DNA of 64,000 nucleotides from an uncultured cyanobacterium (GCA_963744145.1 CAVUSO010000001.1:5120001-5184000), one strand, 5' to 3'; positions 4,463 to 44,786 are shown, numbered from the stretch's first letter. Made by a program: numbers and translations. The notes: a model not told the origin generated them from the sequence alone.

Positions 4463-4471
4463 ATAATTGAT

Positions 4472-9934: not shown

Positions 9935-9994
9935 AGTAATTCGTCTAGTTGTCTAAATTTGCTGACGTTTGAGATTAGACTAATCTATTGCTAT

Positions 9995-10190
9995 CTATGT
10001 AGTGTAGGCAATCACTTAATTTGACCCCTGATGTTTAGCGTGGTTAAGTGTCTGGTCAGCTCTCACAATTAAATCCTGATGACTGGTATTTGTAACTAAG
10101 AATCAGAACTGCCACACTTAAACGTAAAGTAACATATCAAGTAATCAGTGACTGGACATGGGGAATTACTAGAGCAGCGATCGCTCGTCG
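9995..10190 (-). pseudogene. Degenerate fragment of a GGDEF-domain C-terminus
   Basis: Minus strand reads RRAIAALVIPH...YVTL...AKHQGSN*VIAYTT*, paralleling RQAIADLKILH...YVTL...AKHQGRNRAIAYTK* at the end of the 4472-9934 gene; contains stops and indels. Confidence 0.7.
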
Positions 10191-10216
10191 GCTCTAGTTA
10201 TGGGCAAACTCAACCC

Positions 10217-10250
10217 AAAAAAAGCCCCTGCTTAAACAGCAGGAGCTTTA
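10217..10250 (-). terminator. Intrinsic terminator of psbDC
   Basis: Minus strand AAAGCTCCTGC-loop-GCAGGGGCTTTTTTTT just after the psbC stop. Confidence 0.8.
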
Positions 10251-10294
10251 TATTCATTGATCAGCCATGAAGAAAATCAAAACTCCAACCTAAA

Positions 10295-15600: not shown

Positions 15601-16701
15601 ATGGAGCTTAAATCCCATCGATTTATTAAGTATTTTGGTTCACCGCAAGCAGATTTAATTTGCCAATTGGCTATTATTGAAAACTTTGCTGAACAAAAGG
15701 TAATTTTTGAAGAAGGTGAAATTCCGGATTTTTTATACTTGGTCTTAGCTGGACAAGTAGAATTTAGTAAGCGAGTTGGATTGGAACAATATCAAACAGT
15801 TGCTTTAGCAGGACCAAATGACTTTTTTGGTGAATTTGGTGTTTTAGATGGACAACCACGTAGTACCAGAGCATCTGCTAGTCAAGAAACTATTTTAGCA
15901 AAAATTCCCCGTGATAAGTTGATGGAAATTTTGCAACTTACCAATGGTAGTGTAGTTGTACAATTATTTCGCCATATTATTCAGCATCTGCGCTTAACTA
16001 CAGATCAATATGTTAATCAGATTGTGTACAAAGAAAAAATGGTATCTGTAGGAGAAATGGTTAATACAATTATTCACGATTTTAAAAGTCCTTTTACCAG
16101 TATTACATTAGCTAGTTCAATGCTGAAGGAAATCCATGCTGATGAAGAAACCGCTGAATGGTGCGATTTAATTCAAGCTCAGGTCAATCGAATGTTAGGA
16201 ATGGCTGAAGACTTATTAGCATTTACTAAAGGTAACTCCCATTTATATAAACAACCAGTCAATCTAGCTCTGTTGTTAGAGCAATTTAAAAAATTGAATG
16301 CTATTTATTTTAAAGATACTAAAATCGAATTTGCTTTGCAAGTGGATGATCAGCTCTGGGTGAATGGAGATGAAAGTAAGCTAATGCGGGTTTTGCAAAA
16401 TTTAGTGGGAAATGCGGTAGAATGTTTTGGGAATAGGGGTGGCAGAATTGACATTAAAATTTGGAAAGAGCAGGAATGGGTAGAAATTACGATTGCTGAT
16501 AATGGTCCGGGAATTCCTGAAGCAATTCGAGACCATTTATTTGAATCATTTGTTACCTATGGAAAACGTGGAGGAACAGGTTTAGGAACAGCGATCGCCA
16601 AATCGATTATTGATGCTCATTCTGGACAAATCTCCTTTCAATCACAGTTGGGAGAAGGTACAACATTTCACATTCGTTTACCAATATTAACCATTAACTA
16701 A
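15601..16701 (+). CDS. Sensor histidine kinase with N-terminal cyclic-nucleotide-binding domain
   Basis: FGEFGVLDGQPRS phosphate-binding cassette; IHDFKSP H-box; NLVGNA, DNGPG and GTGLG boxes. Confidence 0.92.
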   Translation: MELKSHRFIKYFGSPQADLICQLAIIENFAEQKVIFEEGEIPDFLYLVLAGQVEFSKRVGLEQYQTVALAGPNDFFGEFGVLDGQPRSTRASASQETILAKIPRDKLMEILQLTNGSVVVQLFRHIIQHLRLTTDQYVNQIVYKEKMVSVGEMVNTIIHDFKSPFTSITLASSMLKEIHADEETAEWCDLIQAQVNRMLGMAEDLLAFTKGNSHLYKQPVNLALLLEQFKKLNAIYFKDTKIEFALQVDDQLWVNGDESKLMRVLQNLVGNAVECFGNRGGRIDIKIWKEQEWVEITIADNGPGIPEAIRDHLFESFVTYGKRGGTGLGTAIAKSIIDAHSGQISFQSQLGEGTTFHIRLPILTIN

Positions 16702-21423: not shown

Positions 21424-21667
21424 AGATAAATTTATTATACCCCTTGCTCGACTTACCCTGCGGGCTGTTGTTGGATAGATAACGCCAATCTTTTTTGTCA
21501 CAAATCAATAGAGTCAGATTCCATTATTTAATGGTAAAATATCAATGATATTATACCGCGCTCTCTTGATAAAGACTATAATGGTTTTATTTGTTTAAGC
21601 AAATCTATGACGTTAACTAAATATGTTCTTTCTCAGCTACTGCTGAGATATTTTAGGAAGCTTACGG

Positions 21668-21919
21668 GATACTGATAGAATTTTAACAATGCAAGTGGAT
21701 GATCAGCTCTGGGTTAATGGAGATGAAAATAAGTTAATGTCGGTTTGGCAAAATTTAGTGGGAAATGCAGTAGAATAGATAAGAAAGCAAAAGTCAAAAA
21801 TATTTGTTTGTAGTAAGGGCTATCTTCCCTCAAATATTGAGCATTAGGGGACTAAAGTCCTTACTACGAACGATACTTTTGTAAGAAGTCTAATGTTTTG
21901 GGAATAGGGGTGGCAGAAT
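21668..21919 (+). repeat. Degenerate partial copy of the histidine kinase gene (16315-16449), split by a 115-bp insertion
   Basis: TGCAAGTGGATGATCAGCTCTGGG...TAGAAT and AATGTTTTGGGAATAGGGGTGGCAGAAT match 16337-16449. Confidence 0.85.
21777..21891. mobile_element. MITE/REP-like palindromic insertion
   Basis: Absent from the intact copy; flanked by AAT repeats; internal inverted repeat TTGTAGTAAGG...CCTTACTACGA. Confidence 0.6.
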
Positions 21920-22004
21920 GGGTTAGATTTATTATTCCAGAAAATGCGGCTGATGTGGTAACATAACCTATAGTTGTGTAATTAAATATTAACCATATTG
22001 AGAA

Positions 22005-24692
22005 TTGCAGATCCAGGGTAATCAAGCATTCCTGCTTTCCGATCCCGCAAAACTTTGGTTAGTTCAGTCGGGTAGCATTGCTTTGTTTGCGGTTAGAGTT
22101 AAGGATGGAGTAGTGATCTCAGCCCGTCGTTATTTATTTAGTAGCGAACCGGGAGAGTTAGTTTGTGGGATGGGTATTGGTGGAGAACAGAGCGATCGCG
22201 CTATTTTAGCTGTAGGAATTCCTGGAGATAGTGCTACTAATGGAACTACGGAAATTGTTGAGATTGAGCGGGAACAATGGCAAGATTTACAATCAGCAAA
22301 TCATGCTTATACAGTTACTTTAATTGCCACTTGGTGTCGAAAAATTCAGGGAGTATTTGCTGGAATTAGCGATTTAGAATTATCTAATATATCTGATGCA
22401 ATTATTCCAGATTGGGAATTGTTAATGGGAGAATTGTCTCAACTTCATCGGATTTTTTGGCAAGGGATTGATTTAATTGTAGCACAAGAAAAAGCAGTAG
22501 GATTGGTCAATTTACAAGCCAGAGAAAAATTTAATCAACAGCAATTAACCCAAGCTTTATCAGAATTAGAATCCTTACTACCTGATCAACAAAAATTTGT
22601 CGAAACTGAAACTGATGCTCAGGGTAGTAATCAAAATGAATATTTACCTTTATATCTGGCTGCTGTTGCTGTTGGTAAAGCTTTGGGAATTAAGATTTAT
22701 CTTCCAATTAACTTGAATCAAGATCCTTTAAATGCGATCGCTACAGCTTCTAGAATCAGGATTCGTCGCGTCTTATTAACAGATAATTGGTGGTCAAAAG
22801 ATTGTGGACCTTTATTAGCTTATACCCGTGATGGAAATCACCCGATCGCACTGTTACCTAGGACAGCAGGACGTTACCAAGCTTTTGATCCTGTGCAACA
22901 TATTCATCGACGAGTAGATGAAGAAATTGCCCTAACTTTGCTACCAATAGCTTATATGTTTTATTTGCCATTACCAGAGCGAAAATTAACAGCTTTTGAT
23001 TTAATTTTATTTGCATTGAAAAACCGTCGTAAAGATTTGTTGATGCTATTATGGTCTGGGATAGGAATTACCTTGCTGGGGATGTTTTTACCTCAAGCTA
23101 CCGCAATTTTGATTGATTTAGTAATTCCTGATGGTAAACGGAGATTGTTGATTGAAATTGGGTTAGGATTATTAGCTGGAGCGGTGGGGAGTTTGATTTT
23201 TCAATTAACTAGAGGACTCGCAATGATGCGATTAGAAATATTAGGAGATGCTGCTACTCAATCCGCAGCATGGGATCGGTTATTAAATCTTCCTGTACCT
23301 TTTTTCCGTCAATATTCAACGGGTGATTTACAATTGCGAGTATCAGCAATTAGTGCGATTCGTCATGAATTAGGTGGGGTGGCTTTGCAAACTTTATTTA
23401 TCGCTATTGTCACCTTACCAAATTTAGGATTATTATTTTATTATAACTGGGAATTAGGTCTAATTGCCGCAGCGATCGCACTAATAATTTTGGGAGTAAC
23501 TGGATTTTTAGGAATCGGGAATTTACGGATTACCAAACAATTGCAGAATTTGGAAGGAAAAATTTTAGGCTTAATGGTACAATTAATTAATGGAGTGGCA
23601 AAATTGCGGGTAGCAGGAGCAGAAGAACGGGCTTTTGCTAGGTGGAGTAAAGAATATAGTAAACAGCAAAGATTAAAGCTAAAAATCCAGCAATTAATCG
23701 ATATTTCCGTGGTTTTTAATCAGATATTAATCCCCATAGCGCAGGTATTTTTATTTGCCACAGCAGCAATATTAATCCGGGGAGGGGGTGGGTTATCACC
23801 GGGAATATTTTTAGCATTTAATACGGCTTTTGGGATCTTAATTGCTGGGATAACAGGGTTGGGAGATGTGAGTGTAAATTTTTTAGCAGCGATCGCCTTA
23901 TGGGAAAGAATTAAACCAATTATGCAAACAGAACCAGAGGTTGATCTAAATAAAACTGATCCTGGTCAGTTGTCGGGGAGATTGACCTTAAACCGCGTGA
24001 CATTTCGATATCGAAAACAGGGAGTAGCAGTATTAAATAATGTTAGTCTCAAGGTGGAACCAGGGGAATTTGTGGCATTAGTCGGTCCTTCTGGTAGTGG
24101 TAAATCGAGTCTATTTCGATTACTTTTAGGTTTTGAAACACCCCAATCAGGGGAAATTTATTATGATGGTCAGGATTTGCGAGGATTAAACATCCAAGCG
24201 GTACGGAGACAATTGGGTGTGGTGATTCAAAATAGTCGATTGAATACAGCTTCAATCTTTGATAATATCGCTGGAGGTGCATTAATTACCATGGATGACG
24301 CATGGGAAGCTGCTCATCAAGTTGGTTTAGCAGAAGAAATCGCAGCGATGCCCATGGAAATGCACACAGTGGTAAATGAGGGAGGAAATAATTTGTCAGG
24401 AGGACAGCGACAGAGATTATTAATTGCCAGAGCATTAGTATTAAAACCGAAAATTTTGTTATTAGATGAATCAACCAGTGCTTTGGATAATAAAACTCAA
24501 GCGATCGTCACCGAGAGTTTAGATAAATTAAAAGTCACCCGTGTGGTAATAGCTCATCGTCTGAGTACAATTCGCCAAGCCGATCGGATCTATGTGTTAC
24601 AATCTGGACAAATAGTAGAAGAAGGTAAATTTACAGATTTAATTGCTCAAAATGGTTTATTTGCACGTTTAATGAAACGGCAAATTGCTTAA
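22005..24692 (+). CDS. NHLM/NHLP bacteriocin-system ABC transporter, permease/ATP-binding subunit without peptidase
   Basis: IATASRIRIRRVLL, WWSKDCGPLL, AAWDRLLNLP, GPSGSGKS, LSGGQRQ; TTG start uncertain. Confidence 0.9.
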   Translation: MQIQGNQAFLLSDPAKLWLVQSGSIALFAVRVKDGVVISARRYLFSSEPGELVCGMGIGGEQSDRAILAVGIPGDSATNGTTEIVEIEREQWQDLQSANHAYTVTLIATWCRKIQGVFAGISDLELSNISDAIIPDWELLMGELSQLHRIFWQGIDLIVAQEKAVGLVNLQAREKFNQQQLTQALSELESLLPDQQKFVETETDAQGSNQNEYLPLYLAAVAVGKALGIKIYLPINLNQDPLNAIATASRIRIRRVLLTDNWWSKDCGPLLAYTRDGNHPIALLPRTAGRYQAFDPVQHIHRRVDEEIALTLLPIAYMFYLPLPERKLTAFDLILFALKNRRKDLLMLLWSGIGITLLGMFLPQATAILIDLVIPDGKRRLLIEIGLGLLAGAVGSLIFQLTRGLAMMRLEILGDAATQSAAWDRLLNLPVPFFRQYSTGDLQLRVSAISAIRHELGGVALQTLFIAIVTLPNLGLLFYYNWELGLIAAAIALIILGVTGFLGIGNLRITKQLQNLEGKILGLMVQLINGVAKLRVAGAEERAFARWSKEYSKQQRLKLKIQQLIDISVVFNQILIPIAQVFLFATAAILIRGGGGLSPGIFLAFNTAFGILIAGITGLGDVSVNFLAAIALWERIKPIMQTEPEVDLNKTDPGQLSGRLTLNRVTFRYRKQGVAVLNNVSLKVEPGEFVALVGPSGSGKSSLFRLLLGFETPQSGEIYYDGQDLRGLNIQAVRRQLGVVIQNSRLNTASIFDNIAGGALITMDDAWEAAHQVGLAEEIAAMPMEMHTVVNEGGNNLSGGQRQRLLIARALVLKPKILLLDESTSALDNKTQAIVTESLDKLKVTRVVIAHRLSTIRQADRIYVLQSGQIVEEGKFTDLIAQNGLFARLMKRQIA

Positions 24693-24696
24693 AACA

Positions 24697-27258
24697 CTAT
24701 TTAACTAAACATCCAGACGGGAACCAAGGTTGATAAGTTATAGTAACAGGAAGAGCCGTTAAAATCACTTGTCCTTTTTCGTTAACCATCCAGTTTTTAG
24801 CTTCAACAATTCGATCAGGTCTCGTTATTTGCGAAGGCATAAATTTTTTATTTTGGGGGATAGCGTGAGAAATTTGTTCTTCTGTTAATGGATTTGTGGG
24901 TGGGCTGAGAACTTCCCAATTAGACAATGTTGATTCAGCCGTAATCACATCGTGAGGATTGGTAGGTAAACCACCACTACCAGTAAATGTAAATTGATTT
25001 TTATATCCATCTACATGAGAACAACTTTTATAAATTTGATTGTTGATATTGAGAACTTTCTGGGAGATATTTAAAATTCCTTTACTAGGGTCCAGATCAG
25101 GAGTTTTAATCTGCACCACCCCATTGAATTTCAAACCTGCTGCCGAACTAGCCGTGATTTGTTCACTCGGTGTAGGCGCAAAAACAGATTTAGCATTAAT
25201 TAAAATATTACCACCATAACCTTGGAAAGCATTAGCAGTAATTGTACTATTTTCCAAAAGGGTAATACTGCCAGTAGGTAAATCAAGAGTTATATTACCA
25301 CCAACCCCAGTGCCACCAGCTTCAGCAGATAATTTACTGTGGTGACGTAAAAGTAATTGTTGTGCCGCTAAATCAATATTACCACCACCAGCACTAGCAG
25401 CACTAGCTGTAACTGTGGCACCCTGATCAATAATTAATTTGTTAGTGCTAATTCGTAAATCACCAGCCATACCACTCCCTTGACTTTCAACGAACAATCT
25501 ACTGGGAACGGAAAGACCATTGTTATCAATACCTGTACCAGTTACTTCGATCGAATTCGAGGCTTTTATAGTTAAATCTCCACCCATCCCACTAGTACCA
25601 GTAATTGTCCCCGCTGAAACTTTAGCCCCACCCTGGATACTTAAGCTCCCAGTAGTAATTGTCACACTGCCACTATTACCAGTAGCACCTTGGTCAACTT
25701 GAGAAAATAAACCAGAAGGATATAGACCATCGGCTGATCTACCAACTACTTCAATAGAACCAGTAGCATTAACAGCTAAGTTTCCACCTTGACCAATTCC
25801 AAAAGTGCCAACTTCGACCTGAGAACCATTTTGCAGCAGTAAATTTCCTGTATTGATAGCCACGTTTCCTCCATTTCCTTGGCTACCAGGATTACTTACA
25901 GCAGATATATAGCTCCCCCCCATTAGTTGAATATCTGAGGCATTTATGGTCAATTTAGCAGCATTACCGTTAGCAAAAGTAGAAGTAGTAATCTCAGGCT
26001 GTCCTTGCATGATTAACTGTTTGGTATTGACAGTAAGATTACCAGCATCTCCATTATCCGTCGTGGTCGCAAATAAACCAGTTGAGCCATCGCCCATTAT
26101 TTGCACCGAATCACTAGCATTAACAATCAGGTCACCAGCAGTTCCCGAACTGTAAGTGCTAGTTGATGCAACTCCAGAGTTTTGAATCACCAATTTGCTG
26201 GTATTAATGGTTAAATTGCCACCATGTCCGCTCCCTTCTTTCCCGATCCTGGGGTTAATACCAGCAGATGATCCAACTACCTCAGTTAACAAAGCGCTGG
26301 GAAAAGTTCCATCGGCAGATTGTCCGATTATTTCTACTAAATCGGTGGTGTTGACTGTTAAATTGCCTCCCGGTTTAGTTCCTAATGTAAGAGATATAAT
26401 TTCAGAACCATCAGTGAGACTCAATCGTTGTCCTTGGACATTGATATTACCCCCACCATCTCCACTCGTATCGACGATCGCTCCCTGAGATAGTTGGATG
26501 TCACCGAAATTTTTTATCCCGGCATAATTGAAAAGATAGCCATTTCCATTTACCCCCAGAGTAACAGTACCTGCGACCGCTACACTGCCCAGTTCAATTT
26601 GTCCAGATTCTGCGGTCAGATTACCACCTGTTAAAGTTAAGTTACCACCGAGCAGAGCTAAGGTTTTTCCTAGAGGGACTTGGAGTCCTACTACTTGGTT
26701 ATTGCTATTGGTAGTTTGGGATTGATTGATGATTGAGCCAGGATTAGCCCCAAATTGTAGCCCAATCGGCATATTTATGCTTAATAGTGGGGCTTGAGGC
26801 TTGATCGCACTAAACTCAGTCCCATTGGCAAATTTTAAACTGTTGGCAGTTGTGGCAAAAAATGATCCACCTATATTTAAGCTAGCATGAGGACCAAAAA
26901 TGATGCCATTAGGATTAATCAAAAATAAGTTAGCTGGGACATTCGCTTTGAGTAAACCATCAAGGTTGGAAGGAGAGCTACCTGTAACCCTAGTAATTAT
27001 ATTCTGAACGTCAGTAGAATTATTGAAAAAAACTGTATTACCAGTAGGAACGGAAAATTGACTAAAGCTGTGGAATAGGTTTCCTCCAACTGTAGTACCA
27101 CCAGTAATATGACTGATATTTCCTTGGGGGGTAACGATAGAATTGACTGGAAGGCTGGTATCGGGAATAATTGTTTGGGGAAATGAGGGGGTGCCTATCG
27201 CTAACCAGACCCATGTTAGGCTATTGGCAATCCACACAAATTTAATGCCTGGTTTCAT
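24697..27258 (-). CDS. Filamentous haemagglutinin N-terminal-domain (TpsA-like) exoprotein
   Basis: NLFHSFSQFSV, ANLFLINPNGIIFG, Gly/Asn-rich beta-helix repeats, FTFTGSGGLP and IVEAKNW C-terminal motifs; ATG at 27258 preferred. Confidence 0.92.
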   Translation of the reverse strand: MKPGIKFVWIANSLTWVWLAIGTPSFPQTIIPDTSLPVNSIVTPQGNISHITGGTTVGGNLFHSFSQFSVPTGNTVFFNNSTDVQNIITRVTGSSPSNLDGLLKANVPANLFLINPNGIIFGPHASLNIGGSFFATTANSLKFANGTEFSAIKPQAPLLSINMPIGLQFGANPGSIINQSQTTNSNNQVVGLQVPLGKTLALLGGNLTLTGGNLTAESGQIELGSVAVAGTVTLGVNGNGYLFNYAGIKNFGDIQLSQGAIVDTSGDGGGNINVQGQRLSLTDGSEIISLTLGTKPGGNLTVNTTDLVEIIGQSADGTFPSALLTEVVGSSAGINPRIGKEGSGHGGNLTINTSKLVIQNSGVASTSTYSSGTAGDLIVNASDSVQIMGDGSTGLFATTTDNGDAGNLTVNTKQLIMQGQPEITTSTFANGNAAKLTINASDIQLMGGSYISAVSNPGSQGNGGNVAINTGNLLLQNGSQVEVGTFGIGQGGNLAVNATGSIEVVGRSADGLYPSGLFSQVDQGATGNSGSVTITTGSLSIQGGAKVSAGTITGTSGMGGDLTIKASNSIEVTGTGIDNNGLSVPSRLFVESQGSGMAGDLRISTNKLIIDQGATVTASAASAGGGNIDLAAQQLLLRHHSKLSAEAGGTGVGGNITLDLPTGSITLLENSTITANAFQGYGGNILINAKSVFAPTPSEQITASSAAGLKFNGVVQIKTPDLDPSKGILNISQKVLNINNQIYKSCSHVDGYKNQFTFTGSGGLPTNPHDVITAESTLSNWEVLSPPTNPLTEEQISHAIPQNKKFMPSQITRPDRIVEAKNWMVNEKGQVILTALPVTITYQPWFPSGCLVK

Positions 27259-27419
27259 TGGCAATTCAACCTCTGACAAGTTTAAAAATTTTTCTATTGC
27301 GTAAAAATACTGATAGATCAAAGAGCCTACTAATTTTTATAGTAGCCCTTGGATCAATAAACTAATTAGGTTTTTTAAAAAAATAAATTAAAGACTTGAT
27401 GAAGATTGCTCTAAGTGTA

Positions 27420-27449
27420 TTGACAAGGGTAAAATGACTTAGGTATGGT
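27420..27449 (+). promoter_or_regulatory. Putative sigma70-type promoter of the precursor/lanM operon
   Basis: TTGACA-18 bp-TATGGT; TGACAAGGGT repeated at 27421 and 27452. Confidence 0.4.
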
Positions 27450-27577
27450 AATGACAAGGGTTAGTTGTAAGAACAACTTCTAGCCGACAACCACTTATCC
27501 GCAATTTTTCTTAAGGGTAAAGGTTAGAATGTTGTCAGTGATTATTATTTGATTAAATCTAATGGGAGACTAAAACA

Positions 27578-27715
27578 ATGTCAGCACAAAAAGAGTCAAA
27601 AAAATCAAAAAGTACCAAGCCAGAAACTGCTAAACCAGATTCCTCAGAGCTATCAATGGTAGAGCTAGATACTATTGCTGGTGGTAGAGCAGCACAAAGC
27701 GCCAAAAGCCTTTGA
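27578..27715 (+). CDS. Unannotated 45-aa double-glycine-leader peptide precursor (core RAAQSAKSL)
   Basis: MSAQKESKKSKSTKPETAKPDSSELSMVELDTIAGG|RAAQSAKSL; GGGAG RBS upstream; ELSxxELxxIAGG is the C39-cleavage consensus; directly upstream of lanM-like gene. Confidence 0.88.
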   Translation: MSAQKESKKSKSTKPETAKPDSSELSMVELDTIAGGRAAQSAKSL

Positions 27716-27815
27716 TGGCGATCGCAATTCGCCAAAAATAGTTTAGAACAGCTCTTAAATCAGAATAATTATAAACTGAGAGAGAAGCAGATAAAGATTG
27801 TTTTTGACCTTTTTC

Positions 27816-27857
27816 AGGGGGGACAAGCAAAAAGTTTGCTGTCCCCTCTCGGTTTTT
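27816..27857 (+). terminator. Intercistronic hairpin between precursor and lanM-like gene
   Basis: AGGGGGGACAAGCAAA-AAG-TTTGCTGTCCCCT stem followed shortly by a T tract. Confidence 0.65.
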
Positions 27858-27944
27858 CATTTTCAGCAGTTGAGAGGGTAACAGCGAAGGTGAAAATGAG
27901 GTAATATCTTCTTTTGGCTAGCAATTGCAGTTTTGGGTGGTGCC

Positions 27945-30900
27945 ATGAGTGATCGTCCCATACACTCTCAAGCAGAATTAATCAAAATCCTTGAACGTGC
28001 CAGCACCCTCAAGGAACGTTTGGGTGGAGAATTTATTAGCGATCGCGAACAAATTAAAGAAGATCAAATTAATTGCTATTTGGAAGAGTGGTGCCAAGTT
28101 GTTGGGGCAGGAGATTTAGAAAGATTTGAAAAACGCTTATCCTGGGATGGGTTAAATTTAGAGAGGGTATTACCCATTCTGACGGCTGTCCGTTTAAAAG
28201 ATGACCAAAATCTGCCCCACTGGTTAGAAACTTTAACCAATGGTCTGAAAGCTGCAACTTTGTTCGATCTCAATCAGCCATCTGACTATCCTCAACTTCC
28301 ATTTGTCGAGGTCTTTTTACCCTTAATTAATTTAGCTCGAACTAAAGTAATTGCTAAAACTGGTTCAAGTTATGAATTAATGACAAAAACTGCTCATCAA
28401 AACCTAGAATTCAGTCTCCTCGAATTTTTAGTACATTTAGGCTCGCGATCGCTGCAATTAGAATTTGCGGTTTTTTGTGGGGGTATTCAAACTAATAACA
28501 GTCTCTCGGATTTAGCGAGTGAAAGTAATAAAGCACAATATCTAAAATTTGTCAAGGGGTTATTAGAGGGAGGATTACTACTTTTTTTCCAAGAATATAG
28601 TGTCTTAGGGAGGTTGATTGCTACCACTGTAGATTTATGGGTAGATACCACCGCAGAATTTATGGTCAGATTAGCAACAGATTGGACAGAAATTCAGCAA
28701 ACTTTTCAACCGAAAAAGGAACTAGGAAAAGTCATCGCGATCGCACCTAATCTATCTGAGCGACATCACCAAGGACGGACAGCACTCGAACTGACCTTTG
28801 CTGCGGGTTTAAAACTAATTTATAAACCGAAAAACTTAGGGTTAGACATCGCTTATATTAACTTACTCAACTGGTTTAATCAAGAAAAGTTACCATTAAA
28901 GTTCAAATTAATCAAAATTCTCAACCGGGATGATTATGGTTGGGTAGAATTTATCGAAAATCTTCCCTGTCTTAATCAAGAAGCAGCACAACGCTATTAT
29001 CAACGGGCAGGAATGTTATTAAGTTTAATGTATCTTTTAGATGCAAGGGAATGTAACTGCGAAAATATTATCGCTAACGGAGAATATCCAGTTTTACGCG
29101 AACCAGAAACCTTAATGCACCCTCGATTTCAAGAAGATGAGTTACCAAATGAAGATCGAGGAGTTCAGGTTCTTGCTAATTATCAGCTTGGTAATTCTGT
29201 GATCCGAACTGGTTTCTTACCCCGTTGGAAAATAAATTCTAGAGAACAATATTATGACGATAGTGGATTATGGGGAATGGGTGAGGGAAGAACAGCAAAA
29301 GCGAATTTACCTAAATTAGGCAATACCTATTTATCACCAACTGATTACCTGGAAGAAATCGTAAATGGTTTTCAGGTAATGTATCTATTTTTAATCAAAA
29401 AGAGAGACAAATTAATTACCTCCAATAGTCCATTAGCAGAAATAGCACAACAATCAGTACGCTTTCTTTTTCGGACTACTAAAGTCTATAATTTTATCTT
29501 AAATAAAATCCTCCAACCCAAATTTATCCGGACTGGGATTGATTGGAGTATTCAGCTTGATATTTTGGACAAAGCTCTCCTTGATTCGCAAACAGTCCAT
29601 CCCTGTTGGAGTCTCGCTAAAGCAGAAAAGAAATCTCTGGAATTAATGGATATTCCTATATTTACAGTCAAGGGAAATAGTCGTGATTTAATCATTGCTC
29701 CTGGTGAAAAGATTGAGAATTTTTTTAATCAATCGAGCGAGCAGAATGTGATTGATAAATTCCACCAATTACATGAGCGAGATTTAAACAAGCAAATCGA
29801 AATTATTCGTAATTCTATTTATATCCTAATTGCTCATCAAACTCAACCAAAAATAAATAATAGTTCCCATCACCATTCTGGGAAAAAGTCAGGAATTTTA
29901 ACAGCAAAACAACTAATCGCAGAAGCAGTAATAATTGGTGAAGATTTAAAAAAACGGGCGATTATTTCTACCCAAAAGGGTATGATTTGGATGGGATTAA
30001 ATCAGCTAGCTAAAGCTGAATATTTCCAATTAAATCCCCTTGGATATGACCTTGACAATGGGATTGCAGGAATAGCATTATTTTTCGCAGCTTTAGCAAA
30101 AGTTAGTGATCAAAAATGGGGAGAATTTGCTTTAGCAACATTGCAACCTTTACGTCAAAATTTACAGAGTCATAACCTAGATGGAAATATCTTCCAGAAC
30201 ATGGGTATTGGTGGTGCGAAAGGATTGGGTGCGATTATTTATGTATTGGTAAGAGTGAGTGAATTTCTCTCAGCACCAGACATGATCAAAGATGCTAAAA
30301 AAGTAGCTGCTCTGATTACCAAAGATAAAATTACTAGCGATCGCTATTTAGATATTTTTTCTGGGTCAGCTGGAGCAATTTTAGGATTATTAGCTTTATA
30401 TGAGATTGAGCGAGATCAAAAAGTTTTAGAAACTGCCATAGCTTGTGCCCATAATATATTATTCCATCTATTTAAAAGCAATTCTAGTTTCAGTAGAGGG
30501 AAATTTTTAAATTCCAAATTGCCCATCAGTTTTTATCAGGGTTATACCGGAATCGCTTATGCTTTACTACGATTATATAAAATTACTAATCATGTCAATT
30601 TTTTAGAAGCAGCAAGTGAAATTATCATAGACTGCAATAATTCCAGGCAAAATTTACACCATATTTGTGATTATTATCTTGGTGATTTAGCCCAGATATT
30701 AACTGATAATAAGAAGGAAATCAAGCAAAAATTTAAAACCGGATTAAAACCCAATGGAGAATTAAAATTACAGGGTGTGGATAATCTCTATGAGGGGAAT
30801 TTTGGGATGATCGAGATTGCGTTACTTACGAGTCAAAAGCTGAATCTTCATGAGGGTTTAGAAATTGCTAACAAACAAGCAAGTTGGGTAATAAATAGAG

Positions 30901-31049
30901 CAAAACATACAGGTGGGTTTAAATTGTTTACTAACCTTCCCACCGATGCGTATACCCCCAGTTTTTTTTCAGGAAGTGCGGGAATTGGTTATGAACTTTT
31001 GCGATTAGCTGCTCCAGAATTATTTCCTTCCGTGATCCTCTGGGAATAA
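27945..31049 (+). CDS. lanM: Class II lanthipeptide synthetase (LanM) homologue with degenerate active sites
   Basis: LanM architecture (LIYKPK, YGWVEFI, YYQRAG, RFLFRTT, LanC-like barrel, GSAGIGYELLRL...PSVILWE); catalytic motifs altered (ECNCEN, LREPET, FYQG, LYEG). Confidence 0.88.
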   Translation: MSDRPIHSQAELIKILERASTLKERLGGEFISDREQIKEDQINCYLEEWCQVVGAGDLERFEKRLSWDGLNLERVLPILTAVRLKDDQNLPHWLETLTNGLKAATLFDLNQPSDYPQLPFVEVFLPLINLARTKVIAKTGSSYELMTKTAHQNLEFSLLEFLVHLGSRSLQLEFAVFCGGIQTNNSLSDLASESNKAQYLKFVKGLLEGGLLLFFQEYSVLGRLIATTVDLWVDTTAEFMVRLATDWTEIQQTFQPKKELGKVIAIAPNLSERHHQGRTALELTFAAGLKLIYKPKNLGLDIAYINLLNWFNQEKLPLKFKLIKILNRDDYGWVEFIENLPCLNQEAAQRYYQRAGMLLSLMYLLDARECNCENIIANGEYPVLREPETLMHPRFQEDELPNEDRGVQVLANYQLGNSVIRTGFLPRWKINSREQYYDDSGLWGMGEGRTAKANLPKLGNTYLSPTDYLEEIVNGFQVMYLFLIKKRDKLITSNSPLAEIAQQSVRFLFRTTKVYNFILNKILQPKFIRTGIDWSIQLDILDKALLDSQTVHPCWSLAKAEKKSLELMDIPIFTVKGNSRDLIIAPGEKIENFFNQSSEQNVIDKFHQLHERDLNKQIEIIRNSIYILIAHQTQPKINNSSHHHSGKKSGILTAKQLIAEAVIIGEDLKKRAIISTQKGMIWMGLNQLAKAEYFQLNPLGYDLDNGIAGIALFFAALAKVSDQKWGEFALATLQPLRQNLQSHNLDGNIFQNMGIGGAKGLGAIIYVLVRVSEFLSAPDMIKDAKKVAALITKDKITSDRYLDIFSGSAGAILGLLALYEIERDQKVLETAIACAHNILFHLFKSNSSFSRGKFLNSKLPISFYQGYTGIAYALLRLYKITNHVNFLEAASEIIIDCNNSRQNLHHICDYYLGDLAQILTDNKKEIKQKFKTGLKPNGELKLQGVDNLYEGNFGMIEIALLTSQKLNLHEGLEIANKQASWVINRAKHTGGFKLFTNLPTDAYTPSFFSGSAGIGYELLRLAAPELFPSVILWE

Positions 31050-31093
31050 AAGAGGTTATAATTAGAAATATTCAGGTTGCGAAATTATTCTTT

Positions 31094-32122
31094 ATGAAAA
31101 TTATGACAGTACCTCTGTTCCAATTCCAGGGAATGAATAATACTGACATTAATTGGTTAGTCAGTATTGGTAAAAGAGAAAAATTTGCCCCAAACACCAT
31201 CTTGATTCAGGAAGGACAAATAGTAAATAGTATTTATTTTATCCTAGTCGGTGGATTAAGTATTTCTCTAGCAGGATTAAATGGAGAAAATCAGGAAATC
31301 GCTAGATTAGGAAATGGTGAAATTGTCGGAGAAATGTCTTGGATGGATCATCACCAGTCCCCCATCACAGCATTAGTGGTCGATTCCGCAGAAATTCTGG
31401 AGATTACCCATGAAAAATTACAGATAAAAATCAAACAGGACCACGGATTTGCAGCTCGGTTTTATCAAGCAATGTCAATCGTTTTTTCTGATCGACTCCG
31501 AGGGATTTCTGATTTGTTAGCACATAGTAAGATTGTCCCTGGACAACCGTTGCGAAAAGTGCTGTTAGTTTTTAATGAATTAATCGATCGCGATATTGAT
31601 TGGATAATTGAATTTGGTCACAAAGAGAGATTTTCTCCTGGTCAAGTTTTAATTGAACAAGGTAAATCTTTAGATGCTATATATATTTTGTTGAAAGGAA
31701 ATATCGGCATCTATATTAATATTATAAATGATCATGAAAAAATTAGTAAAGAAGTTGCTCGCTCTGCTAGTGGTGAAATTTTAGGAGAAATGTCCTTTAT
31801 TACTGGTGCGAATGCTTCAGCAACAGTAAAAATAATTGAAACTTCGGAAGTTTTAGTGTTACCGTGCAAGTTTTTATCAGCAAAATTGCAAAAAGATTTA
31901 GGATTTTCTTCCCGATTTTATCGAGCGATCGCGATAGTTCTATTAGATCGACTTAAAGATCGACTCAAACAAAGTGGTTATGCTCGAATTGCTTACGATC
32001 AAGCTAAACATCTAAATGAAGAGCAGGAATATCAGGATGAAATTGACCTTGATGCTTTAGATTATGTTTCTTTAGCTGGGTTAAAATTTGATTGGTTACT
32101 CAAACGCTTACAAGCAAATTAA
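31094..32122 (+). CDS. Tandem cyclic-nucleotide-binding-domain protein
   Basis: Two repeats of DIxW...LIxxG...GEIxGEMS...ARFYxA; no HTH. Confidence 0.88.
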   Translation: MKIMTVPLFQFQGMNNTDINWLVSIGKREKFAPNTILIQEGQIVNSIYFILVGGLSISLAGLNGENQEIARLGNGEIVGEMSWMDHHQSPITALVVDSAEILEITHEKLQIKIKQDHGFAARFYQAMSIVFSDRLRGISDLLAHSKIVPGQPLRKVLLVFNELIDRDIDWIIEFGHKERFSPGQVLIEQGKSLDAIYILLKGNIGIYINIINDHEKISKEVARSASGEILGEMSFITGANASATVKIIETSEVLVLPCKFLSAKLQKDLGFSSRFYRAIAIVLLDRLKDRLKQSGYARIAYDQAKHLNEEQEYQDEIDLDALDYVSLAGLKFDWLLKRLQAN

Positions 32123-32133
32123 AGTAGACATAT

Positions 32134-33573
32134 ATGCTTGAAAAAAAGCGTAAAATATTCCGGAAAGAGTCTTTAGAACGATTATCATCTCCGGAAAGAT
32201 TAGATCGACTAATGCAAGTCATTAGTCCGAAGGGTTGGTTAAATTTAGGAGCTTTTACTTGTCTGATTTTATTAGGATTAGGTTGGAGTGTACTCGGAAA
32301 AATCCCGATTACTGTGACTGGTAAAGGAGTCATTGTCAATCCTCGTCAGATGATAGAATTACAATCACCAATTACGGGACAGTTACAGAAATTAAATATC
32401 AAAGTAGGAGATTGTTTTAAGAAAGGAGATATTTTGGCTGAATTAGCACAACCGGAATTACAAAAACAACTGCAACAACAACAAAATAATCTGGCTGAAT
32501 TACAAAAACAAGATCGACAATTAAGTGCGATCGCAACAGCTAGAATTGAGATAGAAAAGCAAAATTTAGCCCAGCAAAGACAAAATAAACTGCAACGTCA
32601 AAGAGATCAGGGGGAATTAGCGATCGCAGTACGTGAGCAAGAAGTAAAAGCAATCCAAAAAGAGCGAGAAAATCTCAAACAACAGCTAGCAAATAATCAG
32701 GGATTAACACCGATATTAGCACAAAGATTAAAAATTCGCCAAGATTTAAAAATTGAAGGTGCGGTTTCAACTGATAATCTGTTAGAAGCAGAACAAGCTT
32801 ATCGGAATAATCTGAATGAAATTGCTAATTTACAAGCTCAAATTCAGGAACTAGAAGTTAGAGAAATTAAAGCTAATCAAACCTATAAAGACACCCAAAG
32901 TCAAATTAGTGATTTAGACTTCCAATTACAACAGCTCAATAGTCAAGAAAAAAACCTGATTCAACAAAATTTAGAAGCGATCGCAACTCGGAGTAATAAA
33001 ATCCAAGAAGTAAAACGAGCGAGCGCTCAACTCGAACTGCAATTGCAACATAATAGTAAAATTATTTCACCCCAAACTGGCTGTATGCTAGAAATGACGA
33101 TGAACAATGGACAATTTATTACACCTGGGACTAAACTAGGTACGATCGCAACGCAAGATTTAACTAATAAAATTGTCAGTTTAACTTATTTTCCCATTAA
33201 AGATGGTAAACAAATTAAACCGGAGATGACGATCCAAATTACTCCTGACACTGTACCCCGAGAGCGATTTGGAGGAATTATCGGTAATATTGTTTCCATT
33301 ACCCCATTTCCGATTACCAAAGAAGAAATATCGAGAATTGTGGGTAATCCGGAAATTGCTCAATCCCTCGTCTTTGAAGGAGGACAAATTCAAGTTATGG
33401 CCGAAATGAAAAGGAATTATAGTAATATTAGTGGTTATCAGTGGTCTTCTTCCCATGGTCCAGATTTGCAAATTACCACTGGAACTACTACTACAGCTCG
33501 AGTAACTGTAGGAGAACGGGCACCTATCACCTTTATTTTACCATTTTTGAGAGCTAATACTGGAATTTATTAA
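32134..33573 (+). CDS. NHLM bacteriocin-system secretion protein (HlyD-family membrane fusion protein)
   Basis: IFRKESLERLSSPERLDRLM, single TM, long coiled coil, RERFGGI, GYQWSSS. Confidence 0.93.
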   Translation: MLEKKRKIFRKESLERLSSPERLDRLMQVISPKGWLNLGAFTCLILLGLGWSVLGKIPITVTGKGVIVNPRQMIELQSPITGQLQKLNIKVGDCFKKGDILAELAQPELQKQLQQQQNNLAELQKQDRQLSAIATARIEIEKQNLAQQRQNKLQRQRDQGELAIAVREQEVKAIQKERENLKQQLANNQGLTPILAQRLKIRQDLKIEGAVSTDNLLEAEQAYRNNLNEIANLQAQIQELEVREIKANQTYKDTQSQISDLDFQLQQLNSQEKNLIQQNLEAIATRSNKIQEVKRASAQLELQLQHNSKIISPQTGCMLEMTMNNGQFITPGTKLGTIATQDLTNKIVSLTYFPIKDGKQIKPEMTIQITPDTVPRERFGGIIGNIVSITPFPITKEEISRIVGNPEIAQSLVFEGGQIQVMAEMKRNYSNISGYQWSSSHGPDLQITTGTTTTARVTVGERAPITFILPFLRANTGIY

Positions 33574-35871
33574 TATTTAGATTTTGCCAGGATGATGGAA
33601 AAGCTCCTCAACTATCTTAGGTCTTTTTATCTCCTATTGCTCAGGTTCAAAACCAAAATTCAAACATCTTTATTCCCCAACTTCTACCAGTATCGAAAAC
33701 GGGAAAGAACTCCGACAGTATTACAAATGGAAGCAGTAGAATGTGGTGCTGCTGCTTTAGGAATTATCCTAGGTTACTACGGAAGAATTGTCCCATTAGC
33801 AGAATTACGCAAAGAATGTGGAGTCTCAAGAGATGGTGCTAAAGCTTCTAATATTCTCAAAGCTGCTAAAAATTATGGACTCACCGGTAAAGGATTTAAA
33901 AAAGAGCTAGAAGCAATCAAAGAAATTCGCTGTCCTTATATTGTATTTTGGAATTTTAATCATTTTTTAGTAGTAGAAGGATTTAGTAAAAAACGAGTTT
34001 ATCTAAACGATCCAGCGACGGGACCTCGTCCTGTTACTTGGGAAGAATTTGACGAATCTTACACCGGAGTCATCCTGGTGATGGAACCAGGAGTAGACTT
34101 TGTTAAAGGTGGACGTAAACCTAATATTATCTTCGCATTATGGGAAAGATTACGGGATTCATTAGGAGCGATCGCTTACTGTTTGTTAGCAGGATTACTA
34201 TTAGTTATTCCTGGATTAGCTATCCCAGCTTTTACCCAGATATTTGTTGATCAAATTTTAATTCAAAACCGACAAGAATGGTTAAATCCCTTGCTTTTGG
34301 GTCTGAGTGCGACAGCTTTAATTCGGGGATTATTAGCTACATTGCGGTTTAAATATCTCCGCTATTTAAAAATTAAACTAGCTGTCACCATGTCGAGTGA
34401 ATTTATTTGGCATATTTTGCGTTTACCGATTAGTTTTTATGCTCAAAGATTTGCAGGGGAAATTGCCAATCGAGTCCGGATTAATGATCAAGTTGCTGAT
34501 ATCCTATCAGGTCAATTAGCGACAACTATTATTGATATGATTATGATGATTTTTTATGGAATTGTCATGAGTGAATATGATTTAATTTTGACCATGATCG
34601 GGATTTTTTTCGCTAGTATTAATTTAGTCGCTTTAATGCAACTATCCCGTTGGAGAGTAGATGCTAATTTACGGTTAGGACAGGAAGAAAGCAAAGCATC
34701 AGGATTTGCGATCGCGGGATTGCAAAGTATTGAAACTATAAAAGCATCTGCACTAGAATCAGACTTTTTTTCCCGGTGGTCTGGTTATTATGCTAAAACT
34801 ATCAACGCTCAACAAGAACTAGACCTGCAAAACCAAGCATTGGGAACTTTACCAATCTTTCTAAATGCAATTACCTCGATTTTAATCTTAGTAATTGGTG
34901 GGTTACGAGTCATAGAAGGTAATTTGAGTATTGGGATGTTAATTGCTTTTCAAAGTTTGATGGAAAGTTTTCTAGAACCAATTAACCGTTTCGTTAACTT
35001 GGGGAGTAAAATCCAAGAACTAGAAGGTGATTTAAGTCGTCTAGATGATGTTCTCAACAACCCCATTGATCCGCAAATGAAATTAATTGAGAACCAAACC
35101 CAATTATCCGGAGCTGCTAGATCGACCACAACATTGATGGACGATTATCGGTTACAAGGTTATGTGGAACTGCGAAATATTTGCTTTGGGTACAGTCCAG
35201 TTGATGCACCTTTAATAGAAAATTTTAATCTCCAAATCTACCCCGGACAACGAGTAGCATTAGTAGGAGCAAGTGGTTCAGGAAAATCGACAGTTGCTAA
35301 ATTAATTAGCGGATTATACAATCCTTGGGAAGGAGAAATTCTGTTTGATGGAATACTCCGGGAAGAAATTCCCCGAGCAGTCTTAATTAATTCGATCGCT
35401 ATGGTAGATCAAGAGATTTTATTATTTGCTGGTACGATTCGCGAAAATTTAACTTTGTGGGATAATTCGATTCCCGATCGATATTTAATCCAAGCTTGTC
35501 AAGATGCAGCGATCGCTGATGTAGTAATATCTTTAGAAGGTGGTTATAATGCTTACCTACTGGAAAGTGCAGGAAATTTAAGTGGTGGTCAACAACAGCG
35601 ATTAGAAATTGCTCGTGCTTTGGTAAATAATCCCAGGATTCTGATTATGGATGAAGCAACCAGCGCTCTTGATCCGGAAACTGAAAAAATTATTGACCAA
35701 AACCTGCGACGACGCGGTTGTACTTGTATTATTGTCGCTCATCGACTTACCACAATTCGTGATTGTGATTTAATTATGGTATTTGAAAAAGGCAAAGTAG
35801 TTCAACAGGGAACCCACGAAGAATTATGGCAAGAACAAGGTATATATGCAGAATTAATTAGCAGCGAATGA
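33428..35871 (+). repeat. 2444-bp direct repeat, copy 1 (hlyD 3' end + peptidase-ABC gene)
   Basis: Colinear with 44787-47230 at a constant offset of 11359. Confidence 0.95.
33592..35871 (+). CDS. NHLM bacteriocin-system ABC transporter with C39 peptidase, copy 1
   Basis: QMEAVECGAA catalytic Cys, NHFLVV His, LNDPA, GASGSGKS, LSGGQQQ, DEATSALD. Confidence 0.95.
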   Translation: MMEKLLNYLRSFYLLLLRFKTKIQTSLFPNFYQYRKRERTPTVLQMEAVECGAAALGIILGYYGRIVPLAELRKECGVSRDGAKASNILKAAKNYGLTGKGFKKELEAIKEIRCPYIVFWNFNHFLVVEGFSKKRVYLNDPATGPRPVTWEEFDESYTGVILVMEPGVDFVKGGRKPNIIFALWERLRDSLGAIAYCLLAGLLLVIPGLAIPAFTQIFVDQILIQNRQEWLNPLLLGLSATALIRGLLATLRFKYLRYLKIKLAVTMSSEFIWHILRLPISFYAQRFAGEIANRVRINDQVADILSGQLATTIIDMIMMIFYGIVMSEYDLILTMIGIFFASINLVALMQLSRWRVDANLRLGQEESKASGFAIAGLQSIETIKASALESDFFSRWSGYYAKTINAQQELDLQNQALGTLPIFLNAITSILILVIGGLRVIEGNLSIGMLIAFQSLMESFLEPINRFVNLGSKIQELEGDLSRLDDVLNNPIDPQMKLIENQTQLSGAARSTTTLMDDYRLQGYVELRNICFGYSPVDAPLIENFNLQIYPGQRVALVGASGSGKSTVAKLISGLYNPWEGEILFDGILREEIPRAVLINSIAMVDQEILLFAGTIRENLTLWDNSIPDRYLIQACQDAAIADVVISLEGGYNAYLLESAGNLSGGQQQRLEIARALVNNPRILIMDEATSALDPETEKIIDQNLRRRGCTCIIVAHRLTTIRDCDLIMVFEKGKVVQQGTHEELWQEQGIYAELISSE

Positions 35872-36723: not shown

Positions 36724-36768
36724 TGATAGAACCAGAGCGAATTTTGTATTTAGCAGTTACGATAGATA
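36724..36768 (+). repeat. 45-bp xisH-like fragment identical to 44658-44702
   Basis: TGATAGAACCAGAGCGAATTTTGTATTTAGCAGTTACGATAGATA, encoding IEPERILYLAVTID. Confidence 0.8.
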
Positions 36769-39278: not shown

Positions 39279-39893
39279 TTAAAAGTTGTTAATAATTACG
39301 GGTGGACTTGATCGCGCAGGTGGATAATTTGGATATACTGGTTGCAAGTAAATCGGTTGTTGATAAGGTGGTTGCGGGTAGTTTGGGTATGTTGGTTGTT
39401 GATAAGGTGGTTGCGGGTAGTTTGGGTATGTTGGTTGTTGATAAGGTGGTTGTGAATAGTTTGGGTATGTTGGTTGTTGATAAGATGATTGTGGATAATT
39501 TGGATATGGTGATTGTTGATAAGGTGGTTGTTGATAAGGTGGTTGTTGATAATTTGGTTGTGGATAATTTTGTACTGGATTATTTGGATATCCAGACTGG
39601 TCATAATTTGGTGTTAGGATACTTGGATATCCTGCTGGTGAATTATCGCCAATTCCTGGAATACCAGTTACATTATTTGGAGGATTGATATATGGTTGAT
39701 TAGCGGGTAATCGTTGGGTACTGGAACCACGCAATATACCATCTACAGCATTGCGTCCCAAAATATCAAGTATATTTTTAAGAGGTATGGCTAAAGAACT
39801 TTGGGCATTAAAAATAACCATGGGAATGGATATTATGATCCCGACAGCTATTTGACCAAATTGCTTTTGAAATCGATTAGTTTGAGTAATCAT
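39279..39893 (-). CDS. Putative secreted Pro/Gln/Tyr-repeat protein
   Basis: Hydrophobic signal ending SSLA; PTYPNYPQPPYQQ repeats. Confidence 0.75.
   Translation of the reverse strand: MITQTNRFQKQFGQIAVGIIISIPMVIFNAQSSLAIPLKNILDILGRNAVDGILRGSSTQRLPANQPYINPPNNVTGIPGIGDNSPAGYPSILTPNYDQSGYPNNPVQNYPQPNYQQPPYQQPPYQQSPYPNYPQSSYQQPTYPNYSQPPYQQPTYPNYPQPPYQQPTYPNYPQPPYQQPIYLQPVYPNYPPARSSPPVIINNF
39355..39570. repeat. Coding tandem repeat, 39-bp unit with 15-bp subunits
   Basis: GGTTGTTGATAAGGTGGTTGCGGGTAGTTTGGGTATGTT-type units. Confidence 0.85.
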
Positions 39894-44657: not shown

Positions 44658-44786
44658 TGATAGAACCAGAGCGAATTTTGTATTTAGCAGTTACGATAGA
44701 TATTTACGATGAATTTTTTAGTCGCAAATTTATTCAAAGAGTAATTGCCGAACATCAACTAAAATTACTGATCTTTAATTCTGAAC
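44658..44786 (+). pseudogene. xisH: XisH-family C-terminal fragment fused to the duplicated hlyD tail
   Basis: IEPERILYLAVTIDIYDEFFSRKFIQRVIAEHQLKLLIFNSE. Confidence 0.75.

Follow-up and report, generated by a model that had tools for sequence, protein, structure and literature searches.

The region at 22005–35871 of a 64,000-nucleotide stretch of DNA from an uncultured cyanobacterium (GCA_963744145.1 CAVUSO010000001.1:5120001-5184000; the whole stretch is hereafter termed the window) encodes a homologue of the class II lanthipeptide synthetase LanM, a short double-glycine leader peptide and an NHLP-type export system. We regard this cluster, with a confidence just short of even, as a derived ProcM-type (Cys-Cys-Gly) class II locus with an NHLP exporter, carried by a filamentous cyanobacterium, in which the thioether chemistry has been lost and the LanM protein has been kept in an altered or non-catalytic form. 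The locus is an odd offshoot of a well-known system and not a new kind of system. Its new part is the kinase site of the LanM homologue, remodelled with Glu and Arg residues, which is without precedent among the LanMs compared.

An earlier reading of the sequence (the original prediction) had described a peptide-export system built around a catalytically eroded LanM and a Cys-free micropeptide, possibly repurposed for the secretion of a linear signal. A check against the window coordinates placed all of its items where it had located them, and five named NCBIfam families (TIGR03797, TIGR03897, TIGR03896, TIGR03794 and TIGR03796) were found well over their curated cut-offs. The interpretation given in that prediction is partly supported by the results presented below.

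The LanM homologue

The LanM gene (27945–31049, + strand) encodes a protein of 1034 amino acids (aa) when read from its ATG codon; a TTG lies 12 nucleotides (nt) 5′ of it. The protein reaches 706 bits with TIGR03897 (cut-off 304) and has the two-domain architecture of LanMs, i.e. an N-terminal kinase-like dehydratase domain (Pfam DUF4135, PF13575; 1.7e-101) followed by a C-terminal LanC-like cyclase domain (LANC_like, PF05147; 2.5e-35). It was aligned to CylM and LicM2, to its 119 best matches, and to 263 relatives pooled from two large searches. In addition, 80 related loci carrying 81 LanM genes were fetched from species-representative genomes. Catalytic residues are numbered as in CylM unless query numbering is stated.

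By its closest relatives, the cyclase domain belongs to the Cys-Cys-Gly type, a subgroup with three Cys ligands for Zn and a catalytic His. In the query, the His is replaced by Gln, the two cysteines of the CCG motif (two of the three Zn ligands) have become YE, and the region of the first Zn cysteine has been rewritten or rearranged. Moreover, a stretch of approximately 25 residues with the conserved N-W-x-D motif is deleted, and other radical replacements are present (W to G, G to H/D, R to D, C to Y/E). Of the LanC fold, the query retains the glycine-rich motifs at the ends of helices.

On the kinase side, four residues are changed (D252E, D347E, H349N and D364E) and five of the nine catalytic ones are kept (H254, K274, N352, R506 and T512). 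Only the Lys and the Asn therefore remain of the kinase catalytic set (K274, D347, H349, N352, D364), and three of the four phosphate-elimination residues (D252, H254, R506, T512) are present, with Glu at position 252. In the parts of the CylM study bearing on these sites (PMC4550811), Ala mutants at D347, N352 or D364 are reported to give zero dehydration and those at H349 or K274 only a little, while D252, H254, R506 and T512 are described as acting in phosphate elimination. The label “catalytically eroded” given in the original prediction overstates the case for the kinase side.

Position 347 is occupied by Asp in 260 of the 263 relatives and by Glu in none, position 364 is Asp in all 263, and all 81 LanMs from the related loci have Asp at both of these core positions. 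Homologues with the same substitutions, which the original prediction had proposed to look for, were accordingly not found among either the 263 relatives or the 81 locus LanMs. Each of the three new Glu residues adjoins an Arg (E272-R273, R368-E369 and R385-E386, query numbering). At query position 385 all 263 relatives have Cys or a hydrophobic residue, and none of them has more than one of the three basic neighbours. With all three acidic residues turned into Glu, each next to an Arg, the changes in this site are patterned and not random. A reverse pattern was observed in four relatives (P0170, P0223, P0230 and P0256), in which kinase residues are altered; the cyclase His and Cys residues are intact in three of them.

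The closest protein to the query LanM is 45% identical, both in a set of 5.8 billion clusters and among 1.84 billion 50%-identity representatives, and the best of 650 LanM-encoding genome stretches, which did not include the genome of the window itself, gave the same value. This isolation is partly a sampling effect, since the neighbouring ATP-binding cassette (ABC) exporter with a C39 peptidase domain (C39-ABC protein) has a closest relative that is itself only 72% identical. The query departs at 31 of the 140 columns that are at least 95% conserved in the 119 relatives, compared with 2.2% of columns for the median relative and 12.9% for the next highest one (an 892-aa fragment). When the domains were considered separately against 118 full-length relatives, departures were found at 9 of 78 such columns of the dehydratase domain (median relative 1.3%, maximum 10.5%) and at 22 of 66 columns of the cyclase domain (median 1.5%, maximum 12.1%). 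By these counts the departures are far from chance. Calibration with the C39-ABC proteins (60–67% identity) showed the query LanM to be 37.9% identical to its relatives, compared with 45.2±2.9% between relatives (0 of 28 pairs so low), which points to a moderate acceleration.

In a tree of 42 hand-chosen sequences (the query, 27 close or named relatives and 14 sequences with variant sites) the terminal branch of the query measured 0.79, against a median of 0.35. The query grouped with P0163, another long-branch protein lacking the Zn site (support 0.958). This grouping is doubtful and may reflect long-branch attraction, because the cyclase domains of the two proteins differ in their deletions and motifs.

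In spite of these changes, the 3102-nt reading frame is open, as the original prediction of an intact LanM with substituted active sites had it. If departures at conserved columns are taken to measure unconstrained change, neutral decay would be expected to have left about 6.3 nonsense hits within the dehydratase domain and 12.0 within the cyclase domain (approximately 18 in total). None was seen, and the corresponding probabilities of zero hits are 1.8e-3 and 6e-6. An AlphaFold2 model of the protein is of high confidence (mean predicted local distance difference test score, pLDDT, 86.1; predicted template modelling score, pTM, 0.87), with lower values only at residues 840–950, i.e. in the deleted and rewritten cyclase loops. 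It matches LicM2 (template modelling, TM, score 0.71 by query length, 0.80 by target length) and CylM (0.60 and 0.69) over the whole length. Since the frame is open where about 18 nonsense hits were expected and the fold is confidently predicted, the LanM does not seem to be simply rotting. A predicted fold that is kept around rewritten active sites would be the mark of altered selection rather than of none. A literature search for inactive or pseudo-LanMs turned up nothing on lanthipeptide synthetases among the papers listed.

The precursor peptide and related LanM loci

The gene located upstream of LanM (27578–27715, + strand; recovered from the open reading frame (ORF) list, by pattern scan and with a leader profile) encodes a 45-aa peptide, composed of a 36-residue leader ending in ...ELDTIAGG and a 9-residue core, RAAQSAKSL, with two Ser and no Cys. 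Having no Cys, the peptide is unable to carry a thioether. With the cyclase Zn site gone as well, the cluster is unable to convert the precursor that it encodes into a lanthipeptide, which agrees with the original prediction.

Double-glycine leaders have hydrophobic residues at positions -4, -7 and -12 and Glu at -8, and end in Gly-Gly. The leader of the peptide (L-12, E-8, L-7, I-4, G-2, G-1, as read from the translation) agrees with this consensus for substrates of C39 ABC exporters. A scan of all six frames of the 64-kb window for the double-glycine pattern gave four matches, and only this peptide showed a leader-like context; it is therefore the sole credible match, and the single GG-leader precursor with a Cys-free 9-aa core was correctly recognized at the outset.

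No curated precursor family was detected at its cut-off (Pfam Bacteriocin_IIc, E=0.071, was under it), and searches with NCBIfam and Pfam leader families at E up to 10 found neither an NHLP (TIGR03793) nor a Nif11 (TIGR03798) leader domain in the peptide. The leader does resemble the C-terminal part of the precursor leaders encoded beside related LanMs (tblastn E=4.8e-5 to Scytonema locus L022). With a profile built from 68 such leaders, the peptide (E=0.0089) was the top hit of 2518 six-frame window segments, the match being confined to the last ~18 leader positions. A search for relatives of the peptide in the 5.8-billion-cluster protein set yielded no candidate; the set did not return the peptide itself either. 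Structure prediction for a complex of LanM residues 1–650 with the peptide gave a score of 0.02 (mark 0.32), which counts neither for nor against binding.

A possible remnant of a Nif11 leader N-domain 3′ of the peptide stop codon (27716–27901), suggested by tblastn matches with E values of 0.5–43, was rejected: Pfam and NCBIfam found nothing there, and the E value with our own leader profile (63) is unremarkable among the 2518 segments. The TGA stop codon itself aligns with TGT, the first Cys codon, of a Nostoc precursor family with a similar core start. This is a weak lead only, as the alignments (25 residues, E 0.004–0.01) cover mostly the leader and no similarity extends beyond the stop.

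A Shine-Dalgarno-like GGGAGA (27564–27569, + strand; read from the sequence) lies 8 nt 5′ of the peptide ATG. Further 5′, a promoter-like site was noted (TTGACA, 18 nt, TATGGT; 27420–27449, + strand; 10 of 12 positions match); it is a weak candidate, since such sites are no commoner in the region than in shuffled sequences (54 found, 48.8 expected). RNA folding revealed a terminator- or attenuator-like hairpin of 15 pairs (27816–27849) followed by a U-rich run (27816–27864 in total, + strand) between the peptide and LanM genes, an arrangement that is common between precursor and synthetase genes. The local energy of the hairpin, which was absent from the list of a simple terminator scan, is -22.6 kcal/mol, and the entire spacer has a z score of -2.6 relative to shuffles.

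The related loci provided a background for this peptide. Of the 93 precursor candidates located within 3 kb of their LanM genes, 91 contain Cys. There are usually several precursors per LanM, with a median leader of 73 residues and a median core of 23. Enzyme and substrate of the query cluster are thus odd together, as had been supposed. A looser precursor pattern added a few Cys-free candidates (loci L008, L017, L037, L038 and L066). In L022 and L075, full-length paralogues are accompanied by precursors with truncated, 9-residue cores, so such short remnants belong to the normal turnover of precursor arrays. The core of the query peptide looks like a truncated relative of the Cys-containing cores encoded beside intact LanMs, and not like a purpose-built signal. 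Cys-free cores beside cyanobacterial LanMs have already been noted in passages of two earlier papers (Haft et al. 2010, PMC2887384; Walker et al. 2020, PMC7268733).

Loss of the cyclase site also occurs elsewhere. In at least 14 of the 263 relatives, every kinase residue is present but two or more of the His and Cys residues of the cyclase site are missing; eleven of these LanMs form one clade (P0111, P0119, P0154, P0169, P0172, P0174, P0188, P0198, P0221, P0246 and P0264). For the Zn-less LanM of plasmid pn1 of Nostoc sp. UHCC 0926 (locus L081, 8004–11264), all three candidate precursors are Cys-free. The Nif11 precursors of two plasmid loci with intact LanMs contain Cys. To judge from these sequences, the clade looks like a dehydration-only branch of cyanobacterial LanMs, with Cys-free precursors seen in one locus, L081. 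Two other related loci, L019 of Leptolyngbya sp. AN10 (9881–11941) and L023 of Nostoc linckia FACHB-104 (594–2696), encode shortened proteins in which the LanM match stops at about residue 624, where the frame closes. These proteins may be dehydratase-only, and one-Cys precursors are encoded directly upstream of both.

The export genes and the surrounding window

Three genes specify the NHLP-type export trio, each scoring over the cut-off of its family and all lying within 14 kb. The first (22005–24692, + strand) encodes an 895-aa ABC permease/ATPase without a peptidase domain (TIGR03797, 951.4 bits compared with a cut-off of 709.4, residues 215–894; Pfam ABC_membrane and ABC_tran). Residues 1–215 of this protein gave no Pfam match, which leaves the N-terminal ~214 residues outside any family. 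The second (32134–33573, + strand) encodes a 479-aa HlyD-type membrane-fusion protein (TIGR03794, 353.5 bits, cut-off 156.2, profile positions 1–420 of 421) and the third (33592–35871, + strand) the C39-ABC protein, a 759-aa peptidase/permease/ATPase (TIGR03796, 1152.8 bits, cut-off 853.3; Peptidase_C39, 8.7e-36). The translated sequences of both ABC proteins show Walker motifs, and that of the C39 domain its Cys and His. The gaps between the LanM, cNMP, HlyD and C39-ABC genes (the cNMP gene is described below) are only 44, 11 and 18 nt, and because of this spacing the four genes look like one operon.

A direct repeat of 2442 nt (33428–35869 and 44787–47228), 98.5% identical and free of gaps, covers the C39-ABC gene and the final 146 nt of the HlyD gene; its second copy lies 11.4 kb downstream. 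The second C39-ABC gene, located beyond the cluster (44951–47230, + strand; found by repeat search and sequence comparison), also encodes 759 aa, of which 750 are identical. The 36 mismatches all lie toward the ends of the repeat, and the identical middle (34135–35112) suggests gene conversion. Between the C39-ABC copies, 23 synonymous and 9 non-synonymous differences were counted, and the resulting ratio of non-synonymous to synonymous substitution rates (dN/dS) is 0.11. Both copies are therefore under purifying selection, with the export function in use.

The gene between LanM and HlyD (31094–32122, + strand) encodes a 342-aa protein with two cyclic nucleotide monophosphate (cNMP)-binding-like domains. 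It scores 338.1 bits with TIGR03896 (cut-off 161.05), a family named “bacteriocin-type transport-associated” in NCBIfam, i.e. a standard accessory of this transporter type, and it adjoins the transporter genes. A TIGR03896-like gene is also found beside the related LanM of locus L081 and within 10 kb of LanM in 6 of the 80 related loci. The cNMP protein is 37–39% identical to six relatives; it lacks two short inserts (approximately 12–15 residues, one per domain) common to these, as well as the Arg carried by these relatives close to the phosphate-binding loop in each domain.

An exoprotein gene (24697–27321, - strand) lies on the opposite strand between the permease gene and the precursor. 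The encoded protein of 874 aa has the N-terminal domain of two-partner secretion (TPS)/filamentous-haemagglutinin proteins (Pfam TPS, 3.3e-68; TIGR01901, 89 bits). It is uncertain whether this gene belongs to the export system. No TpsB (ShlB- or POTRA-type) partner was found among window ORFs of at least 90 aa. TPS homologues occur within 10 kb of LanM in 7 of the 80 related loci (L001, L010, L015, L018, L019, L020 and L038) and a TPS-domain gene is also present in plasmid locus L083; CHAT-domain genes lie upstream in L082 and L083.

The original prediction of a complete NHLM-type export set that had stayed intact is well borne out by the scores of the trio and the cNMP protein and by the conserved second C39-ABC copy. 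Its hints of adhesion or biofilm signalling were not supported: the cNMP domains belong to a standard transporter accessory also encoded in other loci, and the TPS gene is on the other strand and has no TpsB partner in the window.

The window is cyanobacterial in content, with photosystem II genes, Ycf4, XisI and the octamer GCGATCGC in 77 copies, and the close relatives of its proteins all come from filamentous cyanobacteria. A perfect 45-bp direct repeat (36724–36768 and 44658–44702) flanks ~7.9 kb between the two exporter copies, comprising XisI, two PIN-domain genes, a TPR protein and unknown ORFs. The repeat may represent the ends of an inserted element. A further repeat, with a period of 39 nt and seven copies (39281–39601), lies within a 204-codon ORF (39279–39893, - strand) for which no Pfam family match was obtained. 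An Rfam match to IsrR, the antisense RNA of isiA (172 bits, 11080–11266, + strand), is antisense to a CP43-like photosystem II gene (10295–11758) that overlaps a D2-like gene. It probably reflects psbC/isiA homology rather than a true IsrR. The flanks (1–10000, 15601–16701 and 62633–63943) are rich in second-messenger genes, including two for GGDEF proteins, one of them of 1820 aa with kinase, AAA and GAF domains, and others for an adenylate/guanylate cyclase and for a histidine kinase that has a cNMP-binding domain. Histidine-kinase fragments proposed 5′ of the permease gene (21647–21963; N-box and G2-box recognized by eye) gave no Pfam match and were discarded as unsupported.

Competing explanations and comparison with known systems

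One competitor of our reading is plain decay, in which the LanM and peptide genes are non-functional leftovers in an export operon kept for other substrates, and the open frame is the result of recent inactivation or chance. We judge this possible, if on the doubtful side. It would account for a LanM with changes in both active sites, which no relative combines, for the deletion and the radical replacements in the cyclase domain, and for a Cys-free core of the minimum length seen. Truncated precursor remnants in related loci, a rearranged neighbourhood (duplicated exporter gene, 45-bp direct repeat, DDE transposase) and the absence of the same allele from any close relative are also in line with it. 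Against decay stands the absence of nonsense mutations and of any frameshift in the 3102 nt of the LanM gene. Highly conserved columns are also largely retained (two thirds in the cyclase domain, 88% in the dehydratase domain). Moreover, acidic-site replacements that are all Glu with an adjacent Arg are not drift-like, and the peptide gene has preserved its start codon, ribosome-binding-like site, complete double-glycine leader and downstream hairpin.

A working dehydration-only enzyme, by comparison, seems unlikely to us. Here a Glu-based kinase site would phosphorylate and eliminate (or only phosphorylate) Ser residues in Cys-free peptides, either this 9-mer or precursors encoded elsewhere, and the Zn-less cyclase would serve as a structural or substrate-holding module. 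Such an enzyme would fit the conservation of K274, N352, H254, R506 and T512, the carboxylates at all three acidic sites and the two Ser residues of the core, and it has a parallel in the Zn-less clade with intact kinase sites, one locus of which has solely Cys-free precursors. Published accounts, in the parts that concern this point, lend it further support: the Zn-less cyclase domain of CcaM is required for dehydration and its product lacks lanthionine (PMC10676384), and Haft et al. expected Cys-free cores beside LanM to remain dehydrated (PMC2887384). It is the kinase site that speaks against it. Glu at the two core Asp positions occurs in none of the relatives or locus LanMs, Zn-less ones included, from which we argue that Glu does not support the normal reaction, and Arg takes the place of a universally hydrophobic residue beside a metal-binding position. 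In addition, the Pfam scan of window ORFs found no reductase or other tailoring gene in the cluster. The cyclase state and the Cys-free substrate, both seen in relatives and in the literature, therefore have precedent, whereas the Glu/Arg kinase site has none. That this site marks a selected pseudoenzyme, acting as a leader receptor or chaperone that feeds the linear peptide (or other precursors) to the NHLP exporter or gates export, is a proposal we hold to be improbable. A secreted signal with the LanM as its escort, scaffold or sensor, as originally put forward, is a bare possibility.

Several observations weigh against the reading that we prefer, a derived locus with an altered or non-catalytic LanM. 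The change of Asp to Glu is conservative and five catalytic residues remain, among them the elimination pair R506/T512, so residual or altered kinase/dehydratase activity is possible. Glu252 is found in 3 of the 263 relatives, which are otherwise intact, and position 349 is not His in 18 of the 263; both changes occur in relatives that look active, and these two changes alone mean little. The estimate of nonsense mutations depends on the assumption made above about conserved columns, and a long period under a different constraint, followed by recent inactivation, would make the open frame less telling. The whole cluster represents an orphan lineage with no orthologue (closest LanM 45% identical, closest C39-ABC protein 72%), and leader binding by the LanM is a role that we infer from homology only.

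If the preferred reading is nevertheless correct, transcription of the operon would begin 5′ of the peptide gene and read past a leaky hairpin into the LanM, cNMP, HlyD and C39-ABC genes. The C39 domain would then cut the peptide after Gly-Gly, and the ABC/HlyD machinery would export the linear nonapeptide. The LanM would form no thioether and would probably phosphorylate poorly or not at all; it would be kept by selection as a folded, altered or non-catalytic protein, with a remaining role most plausibly in the binding of leader peptides, either that of this peptide or those of precursors encoded elsewhere in the 7.6-Mb genome.

The locus bears on genome mining and engineering, which assume that a full-length LanM with a Gly-Gly peptide means a lanthipeptide. 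It is a clean counter-example: annotation pipelines would label it a class II cluster, as TIGR03897 is well over its cut-off, yet no thioether is possible. Among the relatives, loss of the Zn site goes together with Cys-free precursors (seen in L081), which points to a dehydration-only LanM branch. Were the Glu/Arg kinase site to be functional or ligand-binding, it would offer a natural test of the roles of the three Asp residues and possibly the first LanM pseudoenzyme; a pseudoenzyme LanM, if real, would be the first lanthipeptide synthetase to serve a function without being catalytic. If, on the other hand, the LanM is dead, the locus is a snapshot of a cluster being dismantled with its exporter retained.

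The closest relatives of the query are found in ProcM-type cyanobacterial clusters (prochlorosins and the “cyanotins” of Walker et al. 2020, PMC7268733), whose LanMs are 37–45% identical and have the Cys-Cys-Gly motif. As in the query, their precursors are encoded just upstream of LanM and have leaders ending in ...EL..(V/I)(A/S)GG, NHLP-type HlyD and ABC genes adjoin (in 20 of the 80 loci), and some cyanotin cores lack Cys, according to part of the same paper. The query differs in the Asp-to-Glu changes of its kinase site, the loss of the Zn site, a leader of 36 residues (median 73) without a Nif11 or NHLP domain, a core of 9 residues (median 23), and one precursor in the 64-kb window rather than several. 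The Zn-less relatives (e.g. that of L081) share with it a Gln in place of the cyclase His, replaced Zn cysteines and a nearby TIGR03896-like gene. In contrast to the query, they have without exception the same kinase residues as intact LanMs (pattern DHKDHNDRT), and their cores are longer (20–51 residues) and rich in Thr, Ser and Gly. The query does not have their sequence motifs and is not clearly in their clade.

Two further groups of enzymes manage without Zn ligands. CcaM (LanMbC, involved in the formation of dehydrazoles), as described in sections of PMC10676384, combines DUF4135 with a Zn-independent cyclase-like domain that is still needed, and gives a product without lanthionine; unlike the query, it has a class III-type cyclase domain, needs YcaO and is an active enzyme. 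No YcaO was found among the 43 window ORFs scanned with Pfam. Class III LanKC proteins have cyclase domains with a LanC-like fold and no Zn ligands (noted in part of PMC7268733). In contrast to the query, these enzymes remain able to cyclise substrates that contain Cys, and their lyase and kinase domains are separate. With NF038151 the query scores 51.7 bits, compared with a cut-off of 575.

The export side conforms to the NHLP/Nif11 system, for which the account of Haft et al. (2010, PMC2887384), in the part relevant here, tied the trio to Gly-Gly-leader precursors and to LanM in Nostoc. Nothing essential differs in the query; its extras are the second copy of the peptidase ABC gene and the inserted TPS gene.

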